From a virus (Duplodnaviria; Caudoviricetes): 27,299 bases of DNA. The position numbers were made by a program, and so were the translations under genes. The DNA is taken from the IMG/VR virus record IMGVR_UViG_3300024255_000128, positions 1 to 27,299 of that record; one strand, given 5' to 3'. Under the pieces are notes generated by a model. The model had not been told where the DNA came from and did no database searches. It was given only the letters and a program-made list of their open reading frames with translations. Each line of letters begins with the position of its first letter. Within the stretch, counting starts at the first letter, position 1. Positions 6,291-26,386 of this stretch are shown one piece after another.

Positions 6291-7562
6291 ATGAAAATAT
6301 ATACAACTTTTAGTACATTTATAACCGAGCGTCTTCATTTAGGAGAATCTAATCTTATATTAGAAGGTGGAGCGGCTGGACACATGTCACACCCCTTTGA
6401 TAATAGATCTTTAACATTTGGTGACTTTAAAAAGCTTATAGAATCAGGGTTAAGTGGAGAACTTAATTTTGAAGAAGATCCTACTGAAAAAACAGATGGA
6501 CAAAACTTATTCGCAACAGTAAAGGACGGCCAAACAATGTTTGCAAGGAACAAAGGTCAAATGAAAAATCCACTCGATCTACCGGGTATCATTAAGATGT
6601 TTACTGGTCACGCTTCAAAACTAGTGGAAGAAACGTATATATTTGCAGCTAAAGATTTGGCTGATGCATTACCAAGAATTAAAGATCAATCAATGTTTGC
6701 AAACGGATTAAACTTCGTTAACATGGAGTTGATATATTCTAAGAACCCTAACGTGATATACTATGACAGAGATGTTATTCAATTTCATAATATAGTTGAA
6801 ACTGATGGAGAAGGTAATCAAACAGGAACTCAAAACTTAGCCACTGAATTAGTAGGAGCTTTAAAAGAATTAAAGAAAGATGTTCAAGATACATTTACTA
6901 TAATTCCGCCACAGGTATTAAAGATTGCCAAGGATATTAACTTTGAAGCCAATAAAGTAAAATTCATTAAACAAGTAGAAGCATTAAAGAATCGTTATAA
7001 TTTAACAGATGCAGACGAAGTATCTCGATATCACGAAATGTGGTGGAGAGAAACAATAGACACAAATTTCCCTGATCTAGAACAAAATCACAAAGAAGGT
7101 TTATTATTAAGATGGGCATATGGTGACAAGAAGACATTAAACTTAAGGTCATTAGACAGCGCTATCGGTAAAGATAAAGCAGCCTTAGTTAAGAAATTTG
7201 ATAAAGAAGATGTTAAAAAGAAATATAAAGAAAACATTAGACCTTTCGAGGATTTATTCTTAGAACTAGGATCAGTTATTCTTAAAAATGCAAGTAATTT
7301 TGTAGCAGCATCACCAGATAAAGAAATGCAAAGGTTACACAATCAAATTAGAACTGAAGCAGATAAAATTAAAAAATCTGGAGGCGTTGATCAAATCAAA
7401 AAGGTAGAAGCTGAGCTTGCAAGATTAGAAAGAATAGGTGGAATAGAATCTATTATACCAACTGAAGGATTAGTCTTTAAATATAAAGGACATACTTACA
7501 AATTAACAGGTACCTTTGCTGCTATTAATCAGCTTATGGGTATCATAAAATACGGAAGATAA
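6291..7562 (+). CDS. Conserved T4-like phage protein with ligase/capping-type KxDG motif (DUF6267-like)
   Basis: EGGAAGHMSHPFD, TEKTDGQN (motif I-like), EGLVFK...YKL (motifs IV/V-like). Confidence 0.65.
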   Translation: MKIYTTFSTFITERLHLGESNLILEGGAAGHMSHPFDNRSLTFGDFKKLIESGLSGELNFEEDPTEKTDGQNLFATVKDGQTMFARNKGQMKNPLDLPGIIKMFTGHASKLVEETYIFAAKDLADALPRIKDQSMFANGLNFVNMELIYSKNPNVIYYDRDVIQFHNIVETDGEGNQTGTQNLATELVGALKELKKDVQDTFTIIPPQVLKIAKDINFEANKVKFIKQVEALKNRYNLTDADEVSRYHEMWWRETIDTNFPDLEQNHKEGLLLRWAYGDKKTLNLRSLDSAIGKDKAALVKKFDKEDVKKKYKENIRPFEDLFLELGSVILKNASNFVAASPDKEMQRLHNQIRTEADKIKKSGGVDQIKKVEAELARLERIGGIESIIPTEGLVFKYKGHTYKLTGTFAAINQLMGIIKYGR

Positions 7563-9406
7563 TGGCACTACAAAACCTAAAAACATATTTTGAATCTAGT
7601 AACGTTAATGACTTTAGAGAGTTATTAACTTCTACATGTGTTGTAACAGAAAAAGTACAAGCTTCTAGCTTTCATGTAAGAAGAGAAGACGCTGGTAAAT
7701 TTGAGTTCTTTAAAAGTGGTTCAAAAAGGTCGATGGATAAAGTAGATAGAACACTTGTTAAGTATTATGAAAATGCAATAAATCATTTCAAAACTATTTC
7801 AGATGCAGCAAAGAATGAAATGCCAAACGACTGGAAATTTGGATTTGATTACATGACAGATAAAAAAACGATAGACATCGAATATGATCTGCTTCCAAAG
7901 AACAATCTAATATTAACACATATACAAGTACTTAATGCCGCAGATCCTACTAGAGTTAAAAAAGTAATTAGAGATCCTAAGATTCTTCAGAAATGGGCAG
8001 CTAAATTAGAAGTACAAGAAATATCTATTTTATTTGAGGGTCAATTAGCCTCTAATCAAAAAGACGATTTAATAGATTTGCTTTCTTTAGGCGAATCTGA
8101 ATTCAAAATCAAATTCGAATCACAGTCATTTACTAGGGCAATATACAACATATTTGATAACGGTAGAAACAAATCTGCATTAAATTTAGATCTAGACAAA
8201 GAAATAGACGCATTAGTTATAAATGTATATGAAGGTAGAAATCCTAAAAGTTTTAAATTAGAAAGATTTGATAGGATTGCACCAGAGCCTAGAAAACCAT
8301 CAGACATGTATCAAATATCAATTTTAGATCTTGTTGAGTTTTTAACAGAGTTTGATATATCAGACATTGAGTTAAAGGAAGAGGATGCAGATCTAAGATA
8401 TGTAGAACTAATGTCATCTATATTTAATGCATATGTAGAGAAACACGCTACTAAATACGTAGGTGCTGATTTTGATTCAGCAGATTTTGCAGAAGGTGAA
8501 AACTTTGAACTTAATACAGCATATATGTCTAATGAGAAAACGATTTCATTAGTACAAAATAAAGTGTTATCAGAATTATTTAAAATAGCACTAGGTTCTT
8601 TTAGAAAAAAGAGAAACAAAGAAACTACTATTATAAATGCAGACCTTATGTCTCAAATTAATAGTATAGTTGAAGAAATAGAAACTATTGTAATGGGAAA
8701 AACAAACGAAAAAGATGTTATGGATTTTACTAGATATTTATTGAATCAGAAATTATCAGGTGACGTAAGTCCAATAATGGAAGGATTAACAGTTGACTAC
8801 CCAGATCAAGGCAAGAAATTAGTAAACATGTTCGTTGGACGTTTTCAGCCATTCACATTAGGTCACGCTAAAGTAATAGATACAATTAGTAAACAAAACG
8901 GCCATCCTGTTGTAGTGTTATTGATCAAATCAAAAACTAGGAAAAAAGAGGATGCATTCAAAAGACCTTATGATGAGGAAACTCAATTAGCAATGCTTAA
9001 CAAACTAAAGTCTAAATATCCAATAGAAAAAGTCTATATCTTGGATAGAGCAGCTATCGATTACATGTTTAACGCAATGAGAGGTGACGGTTATGAACCA
9101 GTACTTTGGGGAACAGGAACTGACAGGATGAAAAACTACGGATTTCAAGTTGATAAACCAGAATATAGAGAATCATTAAACTGTAGAGAAGATTTCGGTT
9201 TATTTGAAATTCCTAGATCAGGTAAAAATATTTCAGCTACACAAGTTAGAAACGCAATGTTAGACGGAGATGAGAAGACATTTAAAAAATTAACACCTAA
9301 GCCAATTCATGGAATGTATGATGAGCTAAGAACTAAATTAGAAGTTTCAATGGGTGTTGCAGAGTCTAAATTCATGACATTTGAACAGTTTGTCAAGAAA
9401 GACTAA
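7562..9406 (+). CDS. Fusion of degenerate ligase-like N-terminal domain and C-terminal HIGH-family (cytidylyl/NMN adenylyl) nucleotidyltransferase
   Basis: C-terminal FVGRFQPFTLGH, GTDR and ISATQVR; N-terminal VTEKVQASSF resembles a degenerate EKxDG motif. Confidence 0.72.
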   Translation: MALQNLKTYFESSNVNDFRELLTSTCVVTEKVQASSFHVRREDAGKFEFFKSGSKRSMDKVDRTLVKYYENAINHFKTISDAAKNEMPNDWKFGFDYMTDKKTIDIEYDLLPKNNLILTHIQVLNAADPTRVKKVIRDPKILQKWAAKLEVQEISILFEGQLASNQKDDLIDLLSLGESEFKIKFESQSFTRAIYNIFDNGRNKSALNLDLDKEIDALVINVYEGRNPKSFKLERFDRIAPEPRKPSDMYQISILDLVEFLTEFDISDIELKEEDADLRYVELMSSIFNAYVEKHATKYVGADFDSADFAEGENFELNTAYMSNEKTISLVQNKVLSELFKIALGSFRKKRNKETTIINADLMSQINSIVEEIETIVMGKTNEKDVMDFTRYLLNQKLSGDVSPIMEGLTVDYPDQGKKLVNMFVGRFQPFTLGHAKVIDTISKQNGHPVVVLLIKSKTRKKEDAFKRPYDEETQLAMLNKLKSKYPIEKVYILDRAAIDYMFNAMRGDGYEPVLWGTGTDRMKNYGFQVDKPEYRESLNCREDFGLFEIPRSGKNISATQVRNAMLDGDEKTFKKLTPKPIHGMYDELRTKLEVSMGVAESKFMTFEQFVKKD

Positions 9407-13808: not shown

Positions 13809-14120
13809 ATGTCTAAGAATACAAAAACTAACATTTTATCAGAAGCAAATGACATAGTCAATAATCGCTCTGAAGAAAAATCACGTCAATATGGTCCTTT
13901 TGAAGAAGGTATGAGACGAGCTGCTATGATATTTAACGGTATGACTGGCCAAGACTTAAACGGTTCAGATATGTATGCCGCATTAGTAGCACTTAAACTA
14001 AGTCGCCACTCGTATAATTACAAGCAAGACAATTTATTAGATGCTGTTGCATATTTAGGTGCACTAGATAATTATGTTGAAAAACATGGCTATAAAGAAA
14101 ATGAAGATCCATTAAAGTAA
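13809..14120 (+). CDS. DUF6378-like all-alpha protein (possible nucleotide pyrophosphohydrolase-related)
   Basis: Pattern ILSEANDIV...QYGP...ALKLSR...DNLLDAVAY. Confidence 0.7.
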   Translation: MSKNTKTNILSEANDIVNNRSEEKSRQYGPFEEGMRRAAMIFNGMTGQDLNGSDMYAALVALKLSRHSYNYKQDNLLDAVAYLGALDNYVEKHGYKENEDPLK

Positions 14121-14124
14121 AATT

Positions 14125-15186
14125 ATGACAGAATTAACATTTTTCACAGAACAGGAAACCGATAAGTCGATCAAAGTCGGCATTTGTGCATTGGTTGGTA
14201 AAATTAGTCCTAAGATCTCATCACATAAAGGTGCATGGGCTCATATGTTATTAAATCAATTACAAAATGCAGGATTTGATAATGCAGAAGTAATCACGTC
14301 TAACCAAACTGATTGGAATGACTATGATGCAATCCTTATTGATCATGGTATGGAATTTAAAGGAACCTTTAATATATTTGGAGGATCTAATGACGATTTA
14401 TATCATCAGTTGATGAGATTGTTCACACCTGTTAAATTATATTCTTTACACCATGATATGCCAGATATCGGTAACTTAATTAAAACAAGACTCAATGCTG
14501 GTACAGATTTATTTAAAACACTTGAATCTAGAATTGAAGAAGCTACTGAAATTTGTAAAACTATTCAAAGAACTGATCACATAGAGAAAACTCAAAAATT
14601 ATGTTTTGGTGATAGTCACTCTTTTGGAATGTATCAATCTGGATATATGTGTCAAAGACATGATGGACTAACAATGCACGGCGCATTTAAAAAAGGTTTA
14701 CAAAGTTATGTTTATCCATGGGTAAATGAACTTACCGTTTATATAGGTAACATTGATGTTAGACACCACTTGATGAGACAAAGTAATCCAAGCGCTGCTG
14801 TTAAAACACTCATAAAGAGATATGAAGAAGAACTCATTGGATTAGGTATTAGTAATATTGAAATTGTTAATGTTTTACCTATTGAAAATGAAAGCAGACC
14901 ATTACCAAAAACAGGATATTATAAAGGAACTCCATTTGCTGGAACTTGGGCAGAACGTACAGCTTTAGTTAAAGAACTTAACGAAGGCATTGAAGATATG
15001 GCACAAAGAAATAATTGGAAAATCTATAAACATCCAGAAGTTTATTTTAATGCCAAAGGTGAATTAACATTTGATGTTATGGAAAAACCAAAGTCTGTAC
15101 ACATCTCTAGAGAATACTATAGATGGAATATGGAAAAGAATGAATCTAATAAAAACTTAATTAAACAAACGTTATCGTTATTCTAA
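14125..15186 (+). CDS. Beta-glucosyltransferase-like N-terminal domain fused to SGNH hydrolase/acyltransferase domain
   Basis: C half has FGDSHS (block I), GNID (block III-like) and SVH (block V His). N half has NDYDAILI...NIFGG...KLYSLHHD, resembling T4 BGT as recalled. Confidence 0.55.
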   Translation: MTELTFFTEQETDKSIKVGICALVGKISPKISSHKGAWAHMLLNQLQNAGFDNAEVITSNQTDWNDYDAILIDHGMEFKGTFNIFGGSNDDLYHQLMRLFTPVKLYSLHHDMPDIGNLIKTRLNAGTDLFKTLESRIEEATEICKTIQRTDHIEKTQKLCFGDSHSFGMYQSGYMCQRHDGLTMHGAFKKGLQSYVYPWVNELTVYIGNIDVRHHLMRQSNPSAAVKTLIKRYEEELIGLGISNIEIVNVLPIENESRPLPKTGYYKGTPFAGTWAERTALVKELNEGIEDMAQRNNWKIYKHPEVYFNAKGELTFDVMEKPKSVHISREYYRWNMEKNESNKNLIKQTLSLF

Positions 15187-15187
15187 A

Positions 15188-15337
15188 ATGAAACTAGACG
15201 AAAAATTCAACATAAAAATTACTTATATAACATCTGGCGAATCAGAAGTTATTGTAGTAGAAACAAAAGACATCGAGTGGTCAATGAATCAATTTCAAAG
15301 AAACAGACCACCACTCAAGTGGACAATTATAGATTAA
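15188..15337 (+). CDS. Small 49-aa protein (absent from ORF track)
   Basis: MKLDEKFNIKITYITSGESEVIVVETKDIEWSMNQFQRNRPPLKWTIID*; fills the gap with 1-nt spacing on each side. Confidence 0.7.
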   Translation: MKLDEKFNIKITYITSGESEVIVVETKDIEWSMNQFQRNRPPLKWTIID

Positions 15338-15338
15338 T

Positions 15339-16547
15339 ATGCAGATAACAACAACCAAGTATTACGACGAATTCTTAAGATATTTTGATCTAGCTAAAAA
15401 ACAACAAGAGCTTAGTAATCTTGGCCATGTTCCACATGCAGAATCAGATCTAAATGACGAACTCATGCATCACATAGAACTATATGATGTAGTAGAGCGT
15501 AAGTATGCTGGTTTCTCTGCAATAATTAATGATTGCTTTTATGGTTGGAATTCAGATCATCCATATTGGTCAAGAATGGAAGCTGGATTATACACTCCTC
15601 AAAGAATGGAAGTTGCCAATAATTGGAATTCTAAAAGAGATGAATTCGGATTAGAAGAATGGCTTTACATTTTTATATTACATAGAGTTTGTGGATCTGC
15701 AATTAATTATGCAACCAAACCATCTGGTTATCACAACACTATTTTATTTAAACTACATGAATGTGAAACGATAGAAGAAATGTGTGATGTGATCAAACAT
15801 CATCCAACACCTTTTTACACATCAGTAGGTTATCAATTTCCAGCATTTCCAAAACCACCAAAACCAGAAGTTAATGAAGATTCATTCGTTGGCATGTCAG
15901 GTTTTACAAAACCAGAATATGTGTATAAAAGAGGTGGGGATTATTTCTTATGTGAATTTGCACCAAGAATGGCCAGAGACATGGCAAACTTCTTAAGAGA
16001 AGGTGATAAAAAAGACTTAAGAGAATTGGGTGAATGGATGTTTAAGTGGAATGCAGATAATGGCTTAAGAGCTTATAGATTTCAATATGCTGCAGTTATT
16101 GCAGATGTTTGTGATTGGTACCCAGAATTTATGAACAGAGAATCAATGTTTTATTATGGTACTAATGCAGTAGAATGTATTGGCTATCTTGCAGATCCTG
16201 TAGAAAAGAAAGGTAAGAAATCAGAAGAGTTTTTAGATGCAGTTATGGCTAAGATTTATGAAGATACTGGATCGCTTCCATATAATGCCGAAGATGTTGC
16301 ATGTGATTTTATTAGATGGATTGAAAACTATTTAAGACCTGGAAAAGATTATGCACATATAAACATGGACACTTTGTGGAATTCCTCCTCTATTAAAGAT
16401 CATCCATATGGTAGACAAAAGGCTATGTTAGATCTAGGCTTGGTAAAAACATTTAATGATATGACTCAATTTCCATCTGATGACAAAGTTTTACAAAGCG
16501 CAGGCGTATCAGTTGAAGAATATAAAAAAATGGTAGCAAAGACATGA
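15339..16547 (+). CDS. Putative amino acid:DNA transferase (aGPT-Pplase, HhH glycosylase-like fold), paralogue 1
   Basis: FQYAAVIAD...ESMFYYGTNA and C-terminal NAEDVACDFIRW resemble the family's D...G and ExxxC motifs; next to a PLP enzyme. Confidence 0.55.
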   Translation: MQITTTKYYDEFLRYFDLAKKQQELSNLGHVPHAESDLNDELMHHIELYDVVERKYAGFSAIINDCFYGWNSDHPYWSRMEAGLYTPQRMEVANNWNSKRDEFGLEEWLYIFILHRVCGSAINYATKPSGYHNTILFKLHECETIEEMCDVIKHHPTPFYTSVGYQFPAFPKPPKPEVNEDSFVGMSGFTKPEYVYKRGGDYFLCEFAPRMARDMANFLREGDKKDLRELGEWMFKWNADNGLRAYRFQYAAVIADVCDWYPEFMNRESMFYYGTNAVECIGYLADPVEKKGKKSEEFLDAVMAKIYEDTGSLPYNAEDVACDFIRWIENYLRPGKDYAHINMDTLWNSSSIKDHPYGRQKAMLDLGLVKTFNDMTQFPSDDKVLQSAGVSVEEYKKMVAKT

Positions 16548-17660: not shown

Positions 17661-18578
17661 ATGGCACACAACAAACACACAGAAAGTTTACAGAATCAAG
17701 ATCTTAATTTAATGATGCCTAACCGACAAGCTTGGTTAGATTTAGCAGGAGATTGGGAAGATCCATTTCCAGCTCCTATTATTACTGAACATGATGGATT
17801 AAAGGTAGTAAGAGAAGATTTAATGGGATTTGGATCTAAATGTAGGTTCGGAGATATTTTAGTACAAAAGGCTCCAACAGATACGTTAGTATATGTACAA
17901 CCAAGATATGGATTTGCAGGCATCTCACTTGCATATTTAGCAAAGAAGTATAATAAGAAATTGGTTTTATTTAGCCCATCTCAAAAAGAAATTTCAGATC
18001 ATCAAGCAATTTGTATCGAAAGAGGTGCAGATATGAAGTTTAGAAGGATAGCGGCAATGCCAAATCTAAATGCAATCGCAAAAAAATGGGCAGAGGCAAA
18101 CAATGCAACTTTTATTCCACTAGGATTAAAACATGAATTGGTAACAGCAGCGGCAGTAAAGGTTGCATATGATCTTGCAGAAACACATGGTTATCCAGAA
18201 GAAGTTTGGTCAGCTATCTCTACAGGTGTATTACAACGTTCTTTACAAATTGCATGGCCAGATGCAGACTTCAATGCAGTTGCAGTGGCACGTAACATTA
18301 AGAAAGGTGAAAGAGGTAGAGCAACAATGTGGTCACATCCTAAAGCGTTTAATCAAAATGTACACCCTTCTAATTTCCCTCCATTTCCATCAGCACTTAA
18401 CTATGATGCAAAAGCTTGGGAGTTTATGAAAAAGCATGCAAATCCTGGAGCATTATTTTGGAATGTAGGTGGAGATCCTAAGCCAGATTTTATTAGAACT
18501 AAAGAACACACTGATTCTCAAAGAGAATGGGGAGAAATTAGAGACGAAGAGATGAAACAACCACTAATTAGATCATAG
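17661..18578 (+). CDS. PLP-dependent enzyme, fold type II (PALP family)
   Basis: VVREDLMGFGSKCR (PLP lysine), SAISTGV phosphate loop, YDAKAW, LFWNVG. Start reassigned to ATG 17661, 4 nt after the upstream stop. Confidence 0.8.
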   Translation: MAHNKHTESLQNQDLNLMMPNRQAWLDLAGDWEDPFPAPIITEHDGLKVVREDLMGFGSKCRFGDILVQKAPTDTLVYVQPRYGFAGISLAYLAKKYNKKLVLFSPSQKEISDHQAICIERGADMKFRRIAAMPNLNAIAKKWAEANNATFIPLGLKHELVTAAAVKVAYDLAETHGYPEEVWSAISTGVLQRSLQIAWPDADFNAVAVARNIKKGERGRATMWSHPKAFNQNVHPSNFPPFPSALNYDAKAWEFMKKHANPGALFWNVGGDPKPDFIRTKEHTDSQREWGEIRDEEMKQPLIRS

Positions 18579-18600: not shown

Positions 18601-19065
18601 ATGGCGAACATAGACAATAAATGCGCAGATCTTGATATTCAAGATTATCACAAAGATACCAAAGACACATTTGGTTTACTCTTTGACAAACAAAAAGAAT
18701 TACAATCTAGATTAGGTTTCAATTTCGATGGTTGGACTATTAAAGAAATCGCAGATTTCTGGATGGTTAACAAACACGCAATGAGCGATGAACTAAATGA
18801 GATGTTCGATGCACTAGGTGGAATCAATGATGGTATTGGTAACGCAGGTTGGAAATACTGGAAAAAGGACAATGCTAAGACTCCTGAAATGAAAATTGAA
18901 GATCTTAGTAAAGAAGATAAATTAGAGTTATTTTATGAGTGGATTGACGGTCTTCACTTCTATATGAACTTTGCAATTTCTATTGGCATGACAAGTAAAG
19001 ACATTGTTAACTTGTACATGGCTAAAAATGCAGAGAATCACGACAGACAAGAAAGAGGATATTAA
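18601..19065 (+). CDS. 56: dCTP/dUTP pyrophosphatase, T4 gp56-like (dimeric all-alpha)
   Basis: DELNEMFDALG, WKYWK, EWIDGLHF, YMAKNAENHDRQERGY. Confidence 0.85.
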   Translation: MANIDNKCADLDIQDYHKDTKDTFGLLFDKQKELQSRLGFNFDGWTIKEIADFWMVNKHAMSDELNEMFDALGGINDGIGNAGWKYWKKDNAKTPEMKIEDLSKEDKLELFYEWIDGLHFYMNFAISIGMTSKDIVNLYMAKNAENHDRQERGY

Positions 19066-19086: not shown

Positions 19087-20490
19087 ATGCTATTAGATAT
19101 AGAGCAAAAAGAAAACGAAGTTATTATCAGTTATTACGACAAAGAAGGCAAGGTGTCATTCAAGAGGTACTCTGTTAATAAATTTGAAAATTGGGTAGTT
19201 ACTGAAGAAAAGGATCGTTGGAAAGATATTAAATTTAGAAACTGGGATAATCGCCCAATTAAGAGATCTATCTCAAAAAGTTTTAATAAATTTAGTTTGC
19301 TTTATTTTATGGATTCTCTACCACAGAAGGATCAAGATGAAATCTTCGAATTTAATATGCCACGTACATACTTTGTGGATATTGAAACTGAAATTGTAGA
19401 TGGTTTTCCAAAAGCAGAAGAAGCTAAAACCAGAATTCTATCATTCTCTATCATTACACCTGAACGTAAAGCAATTGTTTTAGGTTTAGAAGATATGAGT
19501 TCAGATCAAATCAAAAAGATTGAAGATGATACCAATGCTCATTTTAAAGATTATGATCAGGATTGGGAATTCAGTTATTACAAGTTTGATGACGAGTATA
19601 ACATGGTATATACATTCTTACATAAGTTTCTACCTAAGTTCCCAATGATGACTGGTTGGAATTTCATCAACTATGACTGGCAGTATATAGTTAATAGGTG
19701 TAAACGATTACAAATCGACCTGACTGACGTGGCAATCACAGGATCATTAGATAGAAACGATAGTAGACCATTGCACATGGGAATTTTAGATTACATGCAA
19801 TTGTATGATAAATATGACAGATCAGTTGCCGTAAAAGAATCTAATTCATTAGATTTTGTTTCTAGTGCAGTATTAGATGTTGCAAAGATTAAATACACTG
19901 GTGGTTTACAAGAACTATACGAAAATAACTTCCAAAAATATATTTACTATAACGTGGTTGATTCATGCCTAGTATATTATATAGATAAACAGCTTAGATC
20001 GATGGAAGTACTTTTGACATTAGCAACTATTACAAGAATGCCACTTTATAAAGCAGCATCTCCTGTGGCAGTAACTGAAGCACTTATAGCTAGAAAACTA
20101 ATCGGTCAAAACAAAAAGATTGGAATGGAATGGAATAAAGAAGACGCTAAGAAAGATGGTAAATTCGAAGGAGCATTTGTTAAACAACCTATTGTAGGTT
20201 ATTACTCCGGAGTTTCTGCTTTTGATTTCGCATCTCTATATCCATCAATTATGCGTCAATTTAATATATCTCCGGATGCATTCGTTGAGCAAGTAAATGA
20301 AATAGATATTCCAGAAAGAAGAAAGGACAAGGAAGTAATTGTTTGTGAAAACGGAGTTGTCTATAGAAAAGAAGATAGTATTCTTAAAAAAATATTGGCA
20401 GATTTATACGGTCAACGTAAAGAATATAAAAAGACTTCTTATGAATATTACGAAAAAGCCCACGAACTAGAAAAAAAATTAAAGTCCTAA
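19087..20490 (+). CDS. 43A: DNA polymerase family B, N-terminal subunit (exonuclease + motif A)
   Basis: ExoI DIETE, ExoII GWNFINYD, ExoIII YNVVD, DFASLYPSI; ends in the first fingers helix after QRKEYKK. Confidence 0.92.
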   Translation: MLLDIEQKENEVIISYYDKEGKVSFKRYSVNKFENWVVTEEKDRWKDIKFRNWDNRPIKRSISKSFNKFSLLYFMDSLPQKDQDEIFEFNMPRTYFVDIETEIVDGFPKAEEAKTRILSFSIITPERKAIVLGLEDMSSDQIKKIEDDTNAHFKDYDQDWEFSYYKFDDEYNMVYTFLHKFLPKFPMMTGWNFINYDWQYIVNRCKRLQIDLTDVAITGSLDRNDSRPLHMGILDYMQLYDKYDRSVAVKESNSLDFVSSAVLDVAKIKYTGGLQELYENNFQKYIYYNVVDSCLVYYIDKQLRSMEVLLTLATITRMPLYKAASPVAVTEALIARKLIGQNKKIGMEWNKEDAKKDGKFEGAFVKQPIVGYYSGVSAFDFASLYPSIMRQFNISPDAFVEQVNEIDIPERRKDKEVIVCENGVVYRKEDSILKKILADLYGQRKEYKKTSYEYYEKAHELEKKLKS

Positions 20491-23895: not shown

Positions 23896-24312
23896 ATGAA
23901 AAATTTTATTTTAACATTAGCCCTTGCGGCTTTGACAACATTCGGTGCTAATGCACAGAATACAAAAGGTGACTGGTACGTAGGTACTGGCGATATTGCT
24001 AACACGGCTTGGACTGAATTATCAATCCAACCAACGATCGGATATGCATTCTCGGACAACTATATGGTTGGAATGAGCGTTGCACAAGCTGACTCAACTG
24101 AAGACATGGTCTTAGGTCTAGAAGGAAGATATTTCCATAAAGGATTCTTTGGATATGTAGCACTAAACGATTTTGATTTCGATCAACTTCAATTAGGTGT
24201 AGGTAAAATGTTCGCATTCCACAAAGGATCTATGTTTGTAGATCCAAAAATCGTTTACGATTTAGGAATGGAAACAACTAACCTTCAAATCGGATTTGGT
24301 TTAAAGTTCTAA
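23896..24312 (+). CDS. Small outer-membrane beta-barrel protein with signal peptide
   Basis: Signal peptide MKNFILTLALAALTTFGANA|Q, amphipathic beta strands, C-terminal beta-signal IGFGLKF. Confidence 0.85.
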   Translation: MKNFILTLALAALTTFGANAQNTKGDWYVGTGDIANTAWTELSIQPTIGYAFSDNYMVGMSVAQADSTEDMVLGLEGRYFHKGFFGYVALNDFDFDQLQLGVGKMFAFHKGSMFVDPKIVYDLGMETTNLQIGFGLKF

Positions 24313-25177: not shown

Positions 25178-26386
25178 ATGAACATCGAAGCTCTAGAAAA
25201 TAAATCTATAGAAGAATTAACTGATAATGAGGCGAAGCTGCTTGTAGATCACTACAAGCAGCTCTCTGCCAAATATACTGCGTATGAACAAGCAGTTAAG
25301 TTAACACTTAACTCTATCTACGGAGCCTTCGGTAATAAGTGGTTTCACTTTTTTAACATTGACATTGCCGAGTCAATTACAAAACAAGGCAAGAATGCAA
25401 TTCTTTATTCAGAGACTATTCTCAACAAGTATGTTAATGATTTTTGGCACAAAGATACTGCTGCACATAATCACTTTGGTATTAAAGTAAAAGGTAAAAT
25501 TGAAAAACCATCAGTAATTTATATTGATACAGATTCTTGTTATGTACAGTTTCAAGATCTATATGAATCTATAATTTGGCCAGAAGAAACAGAGAAGATG
25601 GAAATCGACGTGTTTATTTTAGCACTTTATGGTTTTAGACTTAGAGATTATATTACTAAGTGTATGGAGAAATATGCAGACAAAAGAAATTCAGATAATT
25701 ATTTGATGTTTGAATTAGAAGCACTTGCATATAATGGTATTTGGATGTCTAAGAAAAAGTATATTCAGAATATTGCATGGGACGATAAATTAGAAATTAC
25801 AGACAGGCATACATCATTAAAGAAAATTAAAACAATTGGCTTTGATACTATCCAATCATCTACCCCTAAATTTGCAAGAGAGAAATTAGTAGAAGCACTT
25901 AAAATCATATTTAAAAGTAGAGTTACTCCAACCGCAGAAGATCTTCAATCATTAGTAGTCTTTATGAAAGAAACTAAGAAACAATTTAAACTTGCAGATA
26001 TTGACGAGATCTCGTTTAATAGAAGAACTAATAATATAGACAAGTATATTGTAGATGATCAGAAGGAATTTCAAATTGGTTTAAAATGTCCAGCAAATGT
26101 TAAAGCAGCAGGATATTATAACTACTTACTTAACAACAATCCAAAATACAAAAACAAATATAAGGTTATCGGTAATGGTGAAAAGCTAAAGATTTATAAT
26201 TGTAAATCACCAATATCAGAGGTATATGCATATATGCCAGGTGATCATCCTTATGAGATTGCACCAGAAATAGATTATGACACTCAGTTTGAAAAGGCCA
26301 TGATCGACCCTCTTAACAGAGTATTGACAGCAATCGGTTTACAAACACTAGATACTAACCTAATTTACGCATCATCATTATTTTAA
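25178..26386 (+). CDS. 43B: DNA polymerase family B, C-terminal subunit (motifs B, C, thumb)
   Basis: KLTLNSIYGAFGN, AESITKQG, YIDTDS, KKKY, QSSTP; ends ASSLF. Confidence 0.92.
   Translation: MNIEALENKSIEELTDNEAKLLVDHYKQLSAKYTAYEQAVKLTLNSIYGAFGNKWFHFFNIDIAESITKQGKNAILYSETILNKYVNDFWHKDTAAHNHFGIKVKGKIEKPSVIYIDTDSCYVQFQDLYESIIWPEETEKMEIDVFILALYGFRLRDYITKCMEKYADKRNSDNYLMFELEALAYNGIWMSKKKYIQNIAWDDKLEITDRHTSLKKIKTIGFDTIQSSTPKFAREKLVEALKIIFKSRVTPTAEDLQSLVVFMKETKKQFKLADIDEISFNRRTNNIDKYIVDDQKEFQIGLKCPANVKAAGYYNYLLNNNPKYKNKYKVIGNGEKLKIYNCKSPISEVYAYMPGDHPYEIAPEIDYDTQFEKAMIDPLNRVLTAIGLQTLDTNLIYASSLF

Follow-up and report, generated by a model that had tools for sequence, protein, structure and literature searches.

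Which reaction does a phage protein carry out when a domain related to T4 beta-glucosyltransferase (BGT) is joined in it to an SGNH-fold domain, and on which substrate? The question is raised by a 353-residue open reading frame, called the hybrid below, in a fragment of a T4-like phage. The whole stretch analysed (the window, 27,299 bases) also carries gp32, UvsW, a split PolB, NrdAB and RecA. As a tentative answer, we propose that the hybrid acylates 5-hydroxymethylcytosine (5hmC) in the DNA of the phage, giving an ester that the product of a nearby transferase gene would then displace.

The two domains of the hybrid protein

The hybrid gene and its domains are located as follows.

14125–15186, plus strand: hybrid gene; 353 residues; best PHROG 17781/13881, annotated as function unknown
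14170–14583, plus strand: N domain, residues ~16–153; homologous to the T4 BGT N-terminal domain; conserved S33-H34 and N83-x-F-G-G87
14587–15150, plus strand: SGNH-fold domain, residues 155–342; G162-D-S164-H, G208-N-I-D211-x-R-H-H, R258, R278, E320 and S324-V-H326

All the motifs named in a sequence-only reading of this DNA (NDYDAILI, NIFGG, KLYSLHHD, GDSH, GNID and SVH) were present in the ORF. Of 1617 candidates, 808 were homologues at E ≤ 0.001, and 472 clusters were obtained at 50% identity, nearly all without a name. Comparison with seven close loci yielded dN values of 0.019–0.061 and dS values of 0.60–1.67 for the N half, and 0.031–0.093 and 0.49–1.28, respectively, for the C half. 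With dN far below dS, both halves are under purifying selection. The homologues, their clusters and this selection establish the ORF as a real gene, which encodes a conserved two-domain phage protein. The family is common, with an estimated 1,000–1,200 stored stretches in IMG/VR. Sequence searches of the PDB with the hybrid protein and the family profile gave nothing useful.

For the N domain, the T4 BGT sequence was taken from NC_000866. The hhalign comparison of the family profile with BGT gave an E-value of 1.2e-4 over 84 columns (q16–108 to BGT 1–97), pairing NDYD, the NxFGG segment (NFFGG in BGT) and the strand KLYSL with KIYYL of BGT. A separate profile search with the N domain ranked BGT first among 20 test proteins, having a score of 30.0, whereas 60 shuffled BGT sequences reached at most 20.4. 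T4 BGT as a query against the 2788 ORFs of the loci described below matched four, all from the hybrid family. The Pfam T4-Gluco-transf model matched 4 of 124 family members below its cut-off (best E 0.0024), and PF09198 had no match anywhere across five carrier genomes, so this test was uninformative. The sequence support for BGT homology is independent, though weak.

The N domain folded alone with a pLDDT of 92.5. Searching 48,161 chains with this model placed BGT (1c3j) first (Z 7.2, rmsd 3.0, 105 aligned), a middling Z value in a range common for unrelated alpha/beta domains, and less than one Z unit above rank 2 (Z 6.5). T4 alpha-glucosyltransferase was found at rank 5. In Foldseek, BGT fell outside the top 50 ranks for the N-domain model, which returned CheY/Rossmann-type matches, none at E ≤ 0.001. 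We accept the homology because structure and sequence agree independently. Retention of the BGT catalytic Asp, also part of the case in the sequence-only reading, is not supported. The equivalent of BGT D100, the catalytic residue, is D111 according to an ungapped extension of the hhalign alignment; just 24 of the 124 diverse homologues have Asp there, as do 115 of 201 loci of a clade-biased set. The second GT-B domain of BGT is missing as well, and the hybrid is thus not a glycosyltransferase.

The full-length AF2 model of the hybrid (79 sequences) had a pLDDT of 90. GDSL/SGNH proteins were its top Foldseek matches, with 16 matches at E ≤ 0.001, and the VIA structure match to the SGNH fold covered residues 155–342 (Z 13.2, rmsd 2.8, 151 aligned). 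In both searches, the fold matches were mostly carbohydrate esterases and O-acetyltransferases, and no SGNH phosphotransferase was among them. Residues 155–342 form a divergent SGNH-fold domain, and the idea of a chimera of BGT-like and SGNH halves is supported by superposition on both folds as well as by sequence. Among 124 diverse homologues, Ser164 is conserved in 123 and His326 in 122; D163, H165, D211, R258, R278 and E320 are invariant. The basic residues R213, H215 and R218, like R258 and R278, are invariant or near-invariant in the same set.

Canonical SGNH proteins contain a block III of the form G-x-N-D, with the oxyanion Asn, and a block V of the form D-x-x-H, with the triad Asp. In the hybrid, block III is G-N-I-D, with the Asn displaced by one position (108 of 124 homologues), and block V is K/Q/R-S-V-H, with the invariant E320 six residues before His326. 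Judging from the alignment, the sites that normally hold the oxyanion Asn and the triad Asp depart from the usual pattern, and both blocks are non-canonical. E320 may stand in for the triad Asp.

Exchangeable neighbours of the hybrid gene

The genomic context was studied in a set of 343 loci, of which 201 were distinct. The set comprises the best 80 of each of five IMG/VR scans, three cultured phages and the window, and is not a random sample. The window contains the following neighbours.

13809–14120, plus strand: DUF6378 gene
15339–16547, plus strand: c2, likely a relative of the aGPT-PPlase (helix-hairpin-helix) transferases; E318-x3-C322
16544–17656, plus strand: c6, a second, optional, paralog-like gene; E-D-K-T-C motif
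17661–18578, plus strand: PLP (PALP-fold) enzyme, a distant relative of the M6 gp52 decarboxylase; start likely 17661, not 17511
18601–19065, plus strand: all-alpha dUTPase/dNTP pyrophosphohydrolase, a candidate dCTPase

Across the 201 distinct loci, the most frequent neighbours were the PLP enzyme (145), c2 (143), DUF6378 (107) and a TS homologue (79). They were followed by c6 (57), inositol-1-phosphate synthase (MIPS, 28), an HMUDK_hel protein (27) and a small HAD-like protein (25), the last labelled by a motif and a weak PHROG match. No acyl-donor gene recurred in these loci. A 49-residue ORF between the hybrid and c2 (window 15188–15337) had no Pfam match.

The assignment of c2 relies on ESM Atlas features, which tied it to clusters with HMUDK_hel/ADDT members (scores 0.93–0.98, family shares 11–36%), and on the E-x3-C motif. 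The motif was found in 127 of 131 c2 proteins, 55 of 55 c6 proteins, 20 of 27 HMUDK_hel partners and also M6 gp51. Profile tests of c2 and c6 against M6 gp51/gp55, the HMUDK_hel partner, Pfam and the PDB gave nothing significant; c6 aligned to c2 in hhalign with an E-value of 0.0017. According to the accessible text of PMC8989533, the leaving group of the known pathway comes from a kinase, and the transferase requires a Cys and a nearby Glu; E-x3-C probably corresponds to this essential pair. The M6 gp52 query gave 38 matches in the PLP cluster.

In 158 of the 201 loci, including the window, c2, c6 or the PLP enzyme lies beside the hybrid. MIPS or an HMUDK_hel protein was found in 29, both modules together in none, and neither in 14, many of which are short contigs. 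On a tree of 186 tips, the module label switches at least four times, with locus L261 nested within the other class. Among 13 long homologues, eight carry c2 as a fusion, two carry an HMUDK_hel domain and three carry neither; the fusions have long lysine-rich linkers. The hybrid gene is the constant part, and the partner modules swap.

The second module replaces c2/PLP beside the hybrid in L062–L083, L232, L245–L252, L261, L274 and L341 (for example, L290:1773-4814). It consists of inositol-1-phosphate synthase, the small HAD-like protein, in some cases an FkbM methyltransferase, and the HMUDK_hel protein. This module suggests an inositol-linked cytosine as the product. A C5 cytosine methyltransferase-like gene of about 400 codons often adjoins the cluster with either module (L149:2941-4143, L070–L076, L120, L137, L142, L261).

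Several further genes were observed around the cluster. In close relatives of the window (L023:12483-14760 and L050), the PLP and dUTPase genes are separated by a GT-A-like gene and a UDP-galactopyranose mutase gene, and in eight of the 201 loci (for example, L048:10432-11100) a LOG/SLOG-family gene separates the PLP gene from c2 or c6. Window positions 7562–9406 encode a 614-residue protein with a C-terminal cytidylyltransferase-like domain, found upstream of the cluster in 32 of the 201 loci. The family B DNA polymerase is present as two genes (19087–20490 and 25178–26386), separated by NrdB, NrdA, a clamp-sized gene and an outer-membrane beta-barrel-like gene. The product of the latter (23896–24312) has a signal peptide and a weak PF13505 match, and occurs in several related loci too.

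The hybrid matched 43 cultured-phage records, duplicates included; c2 and c6 had no match in this collection. Nineteen records (44RR/31 type) also matched the HMUDK_hel partner. In Aeromonas phage 44RR, the two form a single 795-residue fusion adjoining a sodium:solute symporter (ORF234c, L001:6375-7898), which is located directly upstream and may import the co-substrate, the polyol that other loci synthesise. The 21 records of the phage 25 type matched the putative glycosyltransferase of that phage. Where 44RR has the symporter, phage 25 (L002:5776-7957) has UDP-galactopyranose mutase and this unannotated putative glycosyltransferase, the latter placed between the mutase and the hybrid. The pair suggests galactofuranosyl-hmC. 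Erwinia phage FBB1, which had no hybrid match, carries a 68% homologue of the glycosyltransferase beside a mutase; the hybrid is therefore accessory to the pair. The remaining three records are Tenacibaculum phages, for which no partner was found. In one of them, PTm1, the hybrid adjoins ribonucleotide reductase, and a second TS homologue with an atypical RSFND motif lies beside an annotated guanylyltransferase and a histidine phosphatase (L357:7914-10852). Altogether, 24 of the 43 records (21 of the phage 25 type and 3 from Tenacibaculum) contain the hybrid without a detectable c2 or HMUDK_hel partner.

The target base and the proposed reaction

The identity of the base was deduced from the neighbouring TS homologues. 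All 79 read RSND, with Asp at the substrate position as in T4 gp42, where M6 gp58 has Asn. They have Asp at both diagnostic positions and are of the dCMP-hydroxymethylase type; one is about 64% identical to a T4-type gp42. The same signature was found in gp42 of 44RR and 25, and in the second TS of G002, a complete relative with the gene order of the window, in which this gene lies far from the cluster. The base link for the window lineage itself is indirect, as this 27-kb fragment has no TS gene, and in the relative G001 (64% complete) canonical ThyA was the only TS found.

Two other bases were considered. The Asn at ThyA position 177 indicative of dUMP hydroxymethylases is Asp in 79 of 79 synthases, and hmU was rejected on this signature. 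D169N, given as the mark of 5-hydroxy-dCMP synthases in the accessible text of PMC13326640, is likewise absent from all 79, and 5-hydroxycytosine was rejected for this reason.

The hmU kinase family PF18748 was found in none of four carrier genomes (44RR, 25, G002 and G003), with a positive M6 control, and M6 gp54 had no matches in four carrier genomes or among the 2788 ORFs. The check with PF18747 had no match anywhere and is uninformative, so the kinase absence refers to the PF18748 family. The context thus fits the hydroxymethyl-pyrimidine target put forward in the sequence-only reading, and specifically cytosine.

The proposed reaction sequence has four steps. A dCMP hydroxymethylase, a gene type seen in the relatives, would supply 5hmC to the DNA. 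The N domain would recognise this base and likely flip it as BGT does, given their homology. Ser164 and His326 would then transfer an acyl group from some donor to the hydroxymethyl oxygen, the counterpart of the kinase step in M6/ViI. Finally, by analogy with M6/ViI, the Cys/Glu helix-hairpin-helix partner would attack C6, expel the acyl group and add a nucleophile. This would be an amino acid, subsequently trimmed by the PLP enzyme, in the module of the window, and myo-inositol in the other module.

The hybrid is the natural candidate for activation since its gene is constant, the transferase and supply genes swap, and the kinase is missing. Its N domain comes from an enzyme acting on the same hydroxyl, and its C domain has acyl-enzyme residues. 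Both folds, the conservation of Ser164 and His326, the fusions and the dCMP-type synthases point in the same direction. The earlier suggestion that the acyl group serves as a leaving group has gained circumstantial support from the lack of an hmU kinase and from the constant association with two transferase-like modules; the non-canonical SGNH blocks and the cultured records without a transferase-like partner count against it. In these 24 records, an activator has nothing to serve. The proposal is further weakened by the absence of a TS gene from the window, by canonical ThyA in G001, and by the negative profile tests behind the c2 assignment. C5 methyltransferases catalyse substitution of unactivated 5hmC through a Cys residue, so activation may be unnecessary.

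Four alternatives stay in play, given the records lacking a partner, the non-canonical SGNH blocks and the absence of a recurrent donor gene. In the first, which we consider doubtful, 5hmC would initially receive a substituent from the partner (inositol, a sugar or a group derived from an amino acid), and this substituent would be O- or N-acylated by the hybrid, much like the acetylation of modified thymine by PaMx11 gp48. This tailoring would agree with the predominance of carbohydrate esterases and O-acetyltransferases among the SGNH matches, and would work in every context, including the 21 records beside UDP-galactopyranose mutase and the putative glycosyltransferase. However, a single conserved active site would have to take three unlike acceptors, and tailoring genes are usually variable, yet the hybrid is constant while its partners swap. 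It also leaves no candidate for activation.

The same context evidence as for acyl activation applies if the SGNH fold has been repurposed to transfer a phosphoryl or nucleotidyl group from a phosphorylated donor to 5hmC via Ser/His. We regard this as unlikely, less so than the remaining alternatives. The non-canonical blocks III and V and the many conserved basic residues (R213, H215, R218, R258 and R278) would suit such chemistry, as would the position of the SGNH domain in place of the nucleotide-sugar-binding half of BGT. The basic residues could equally bind DNA or CoA, though, the fold matches include no phosphotransferase, and the partner-less copies are left unexplained.

A role as a hydrolase, removing an ester in editing or precursor unmasking, or as a reader whose part is limited to 5hmC DNA binding and partner recruitment, is improbable. 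The majority of the SGNH structural neighbours are hydrolases, and the lysine-rich linkers of the fusions suit a tether; nevertheless, near-invariant Ser164 and His326 speak against a pure reader, and the 201 loci contain no recurrent ester-forming partner for a hydrolase to undo. An enzyme that merely shares the operon and acts on a small molecule, a nucleotide or a cell-surface glycan would be in line with the middling BGT match, the generic alpha/beta folds from Foldseek and the partner-less PTm1 locus with its ribonucleotide reductase and atypical second TS motif, but is very improbable in view of the exclusive matches of the BGT query to the hybrid family, the repeated fusion to HMUDK_hel-type domains and the tight linkage to dCMP hydroxymethylase-type genes.

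Acyl activation of 5hmC thus remains the best explanation. In its full form, to which we give marginally less credence, a base-flipping DNA O-acyltransferase composed of half of BGT and an SGNH domain would replace the kinase as the 5hmC activator and feed interchangeable transferases, yielding amino-acid-derived and inositol-linked cytosines in widespread aquatic phages and in 44RR and 31. If the hybrid acylates 5hmC, this would be new chemistry on DNA bases and a kinase-free route to hypermodification; the sister module would yield the first base linked to inositol, and a tool for 5hmC labelling might follow.

Relation to known systems

The accessible portion of Petrov et al. 2010 (PMC2993671) describes Aeromonas phages 44RR, 31 and 25 as encoding dCMP hydroxymethylase and no glucosyltransferase, and leaves open how their DNA is protected and, for 44RR and 25, modified. 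Members of the hybrid family occur in each of these phages and point to the genes to be tested. As these phages are cultured, the proposal is directly testable.

The literature searched contained no description of the hybrid or of cytosine modifications downstream of it, and nothing linking SGNH proteins to phage DNA hypermodification; Iyer et al. 2013, the likeliest place for an earlier prediction, was outside this search. SGNH is unmentioned in PMC8989533 and bioRxiv 2023.12.21.572611, and PMC8056088 mentions neither 44RR nor inositol. The accessible text of PMC13458397 does not describe the hybrid, and that of PMC13326640 has no mention of SGNH, acyl or Aeromonas.

T4 BGT (PF09198; 1c3j) resembles the hybrid in its residues 1–138, on which the N domain superposes, in the D-x(10-14)-N-x-F-G-G segment and in the link to 5hmC. 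The hybrid differs in having the SGNH domain instead of the second, UDP-glucose GT-B domain, and in the lack of conservation at the Asp100 position. SGNH/GDSL esterases and O-acetyltransferases (PF00657, PF13472; 4rsh, PatB 8tlb) share the fold, the G-D-S of block I and the C-terminal His with the hybrid. In contrast to these families, the hybrid has G-N-I-D in block III, K/Q/R-S-V-H in block V and a Glu six residues before the His, scores below the Pfam cut-offs, and is fused to a DNA-enzyme domain.

The glycosylated 5-hydroxycytosine pathways of RB69, DLP3 and RL38J1, as presented in the accessible text of PMC13326640, are alike in being cytosine hypermodifications of T4-like phages with UDP-galactopyranose mutase, and differ in the D169N synthases. 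Thymidine hypermodification in M6, ViI, PaMx11, PhiW-14 and SH-Ab 15599 uses dUMP hydroxymethylase, 5-HMUDK, aGPT-PPlase2/AADT and a PLP decarboxylase. The hybrid clusters have in common with these pathways a hydroxymethyl-pyrimidine precursor, aGPT-PPlase-like genes with E-x3-C and a PLP enzyme related to M6 gp52. Unlike them, they combine a dCMP-type synthase with a constant hybrid, carry no PF18748 kinase (four genomes) and, in one module, contain inositol-phosphate synthase. The hybrid cluster does not belong to the M6/ViI-type pathways, although its mode of operation is likely similar.
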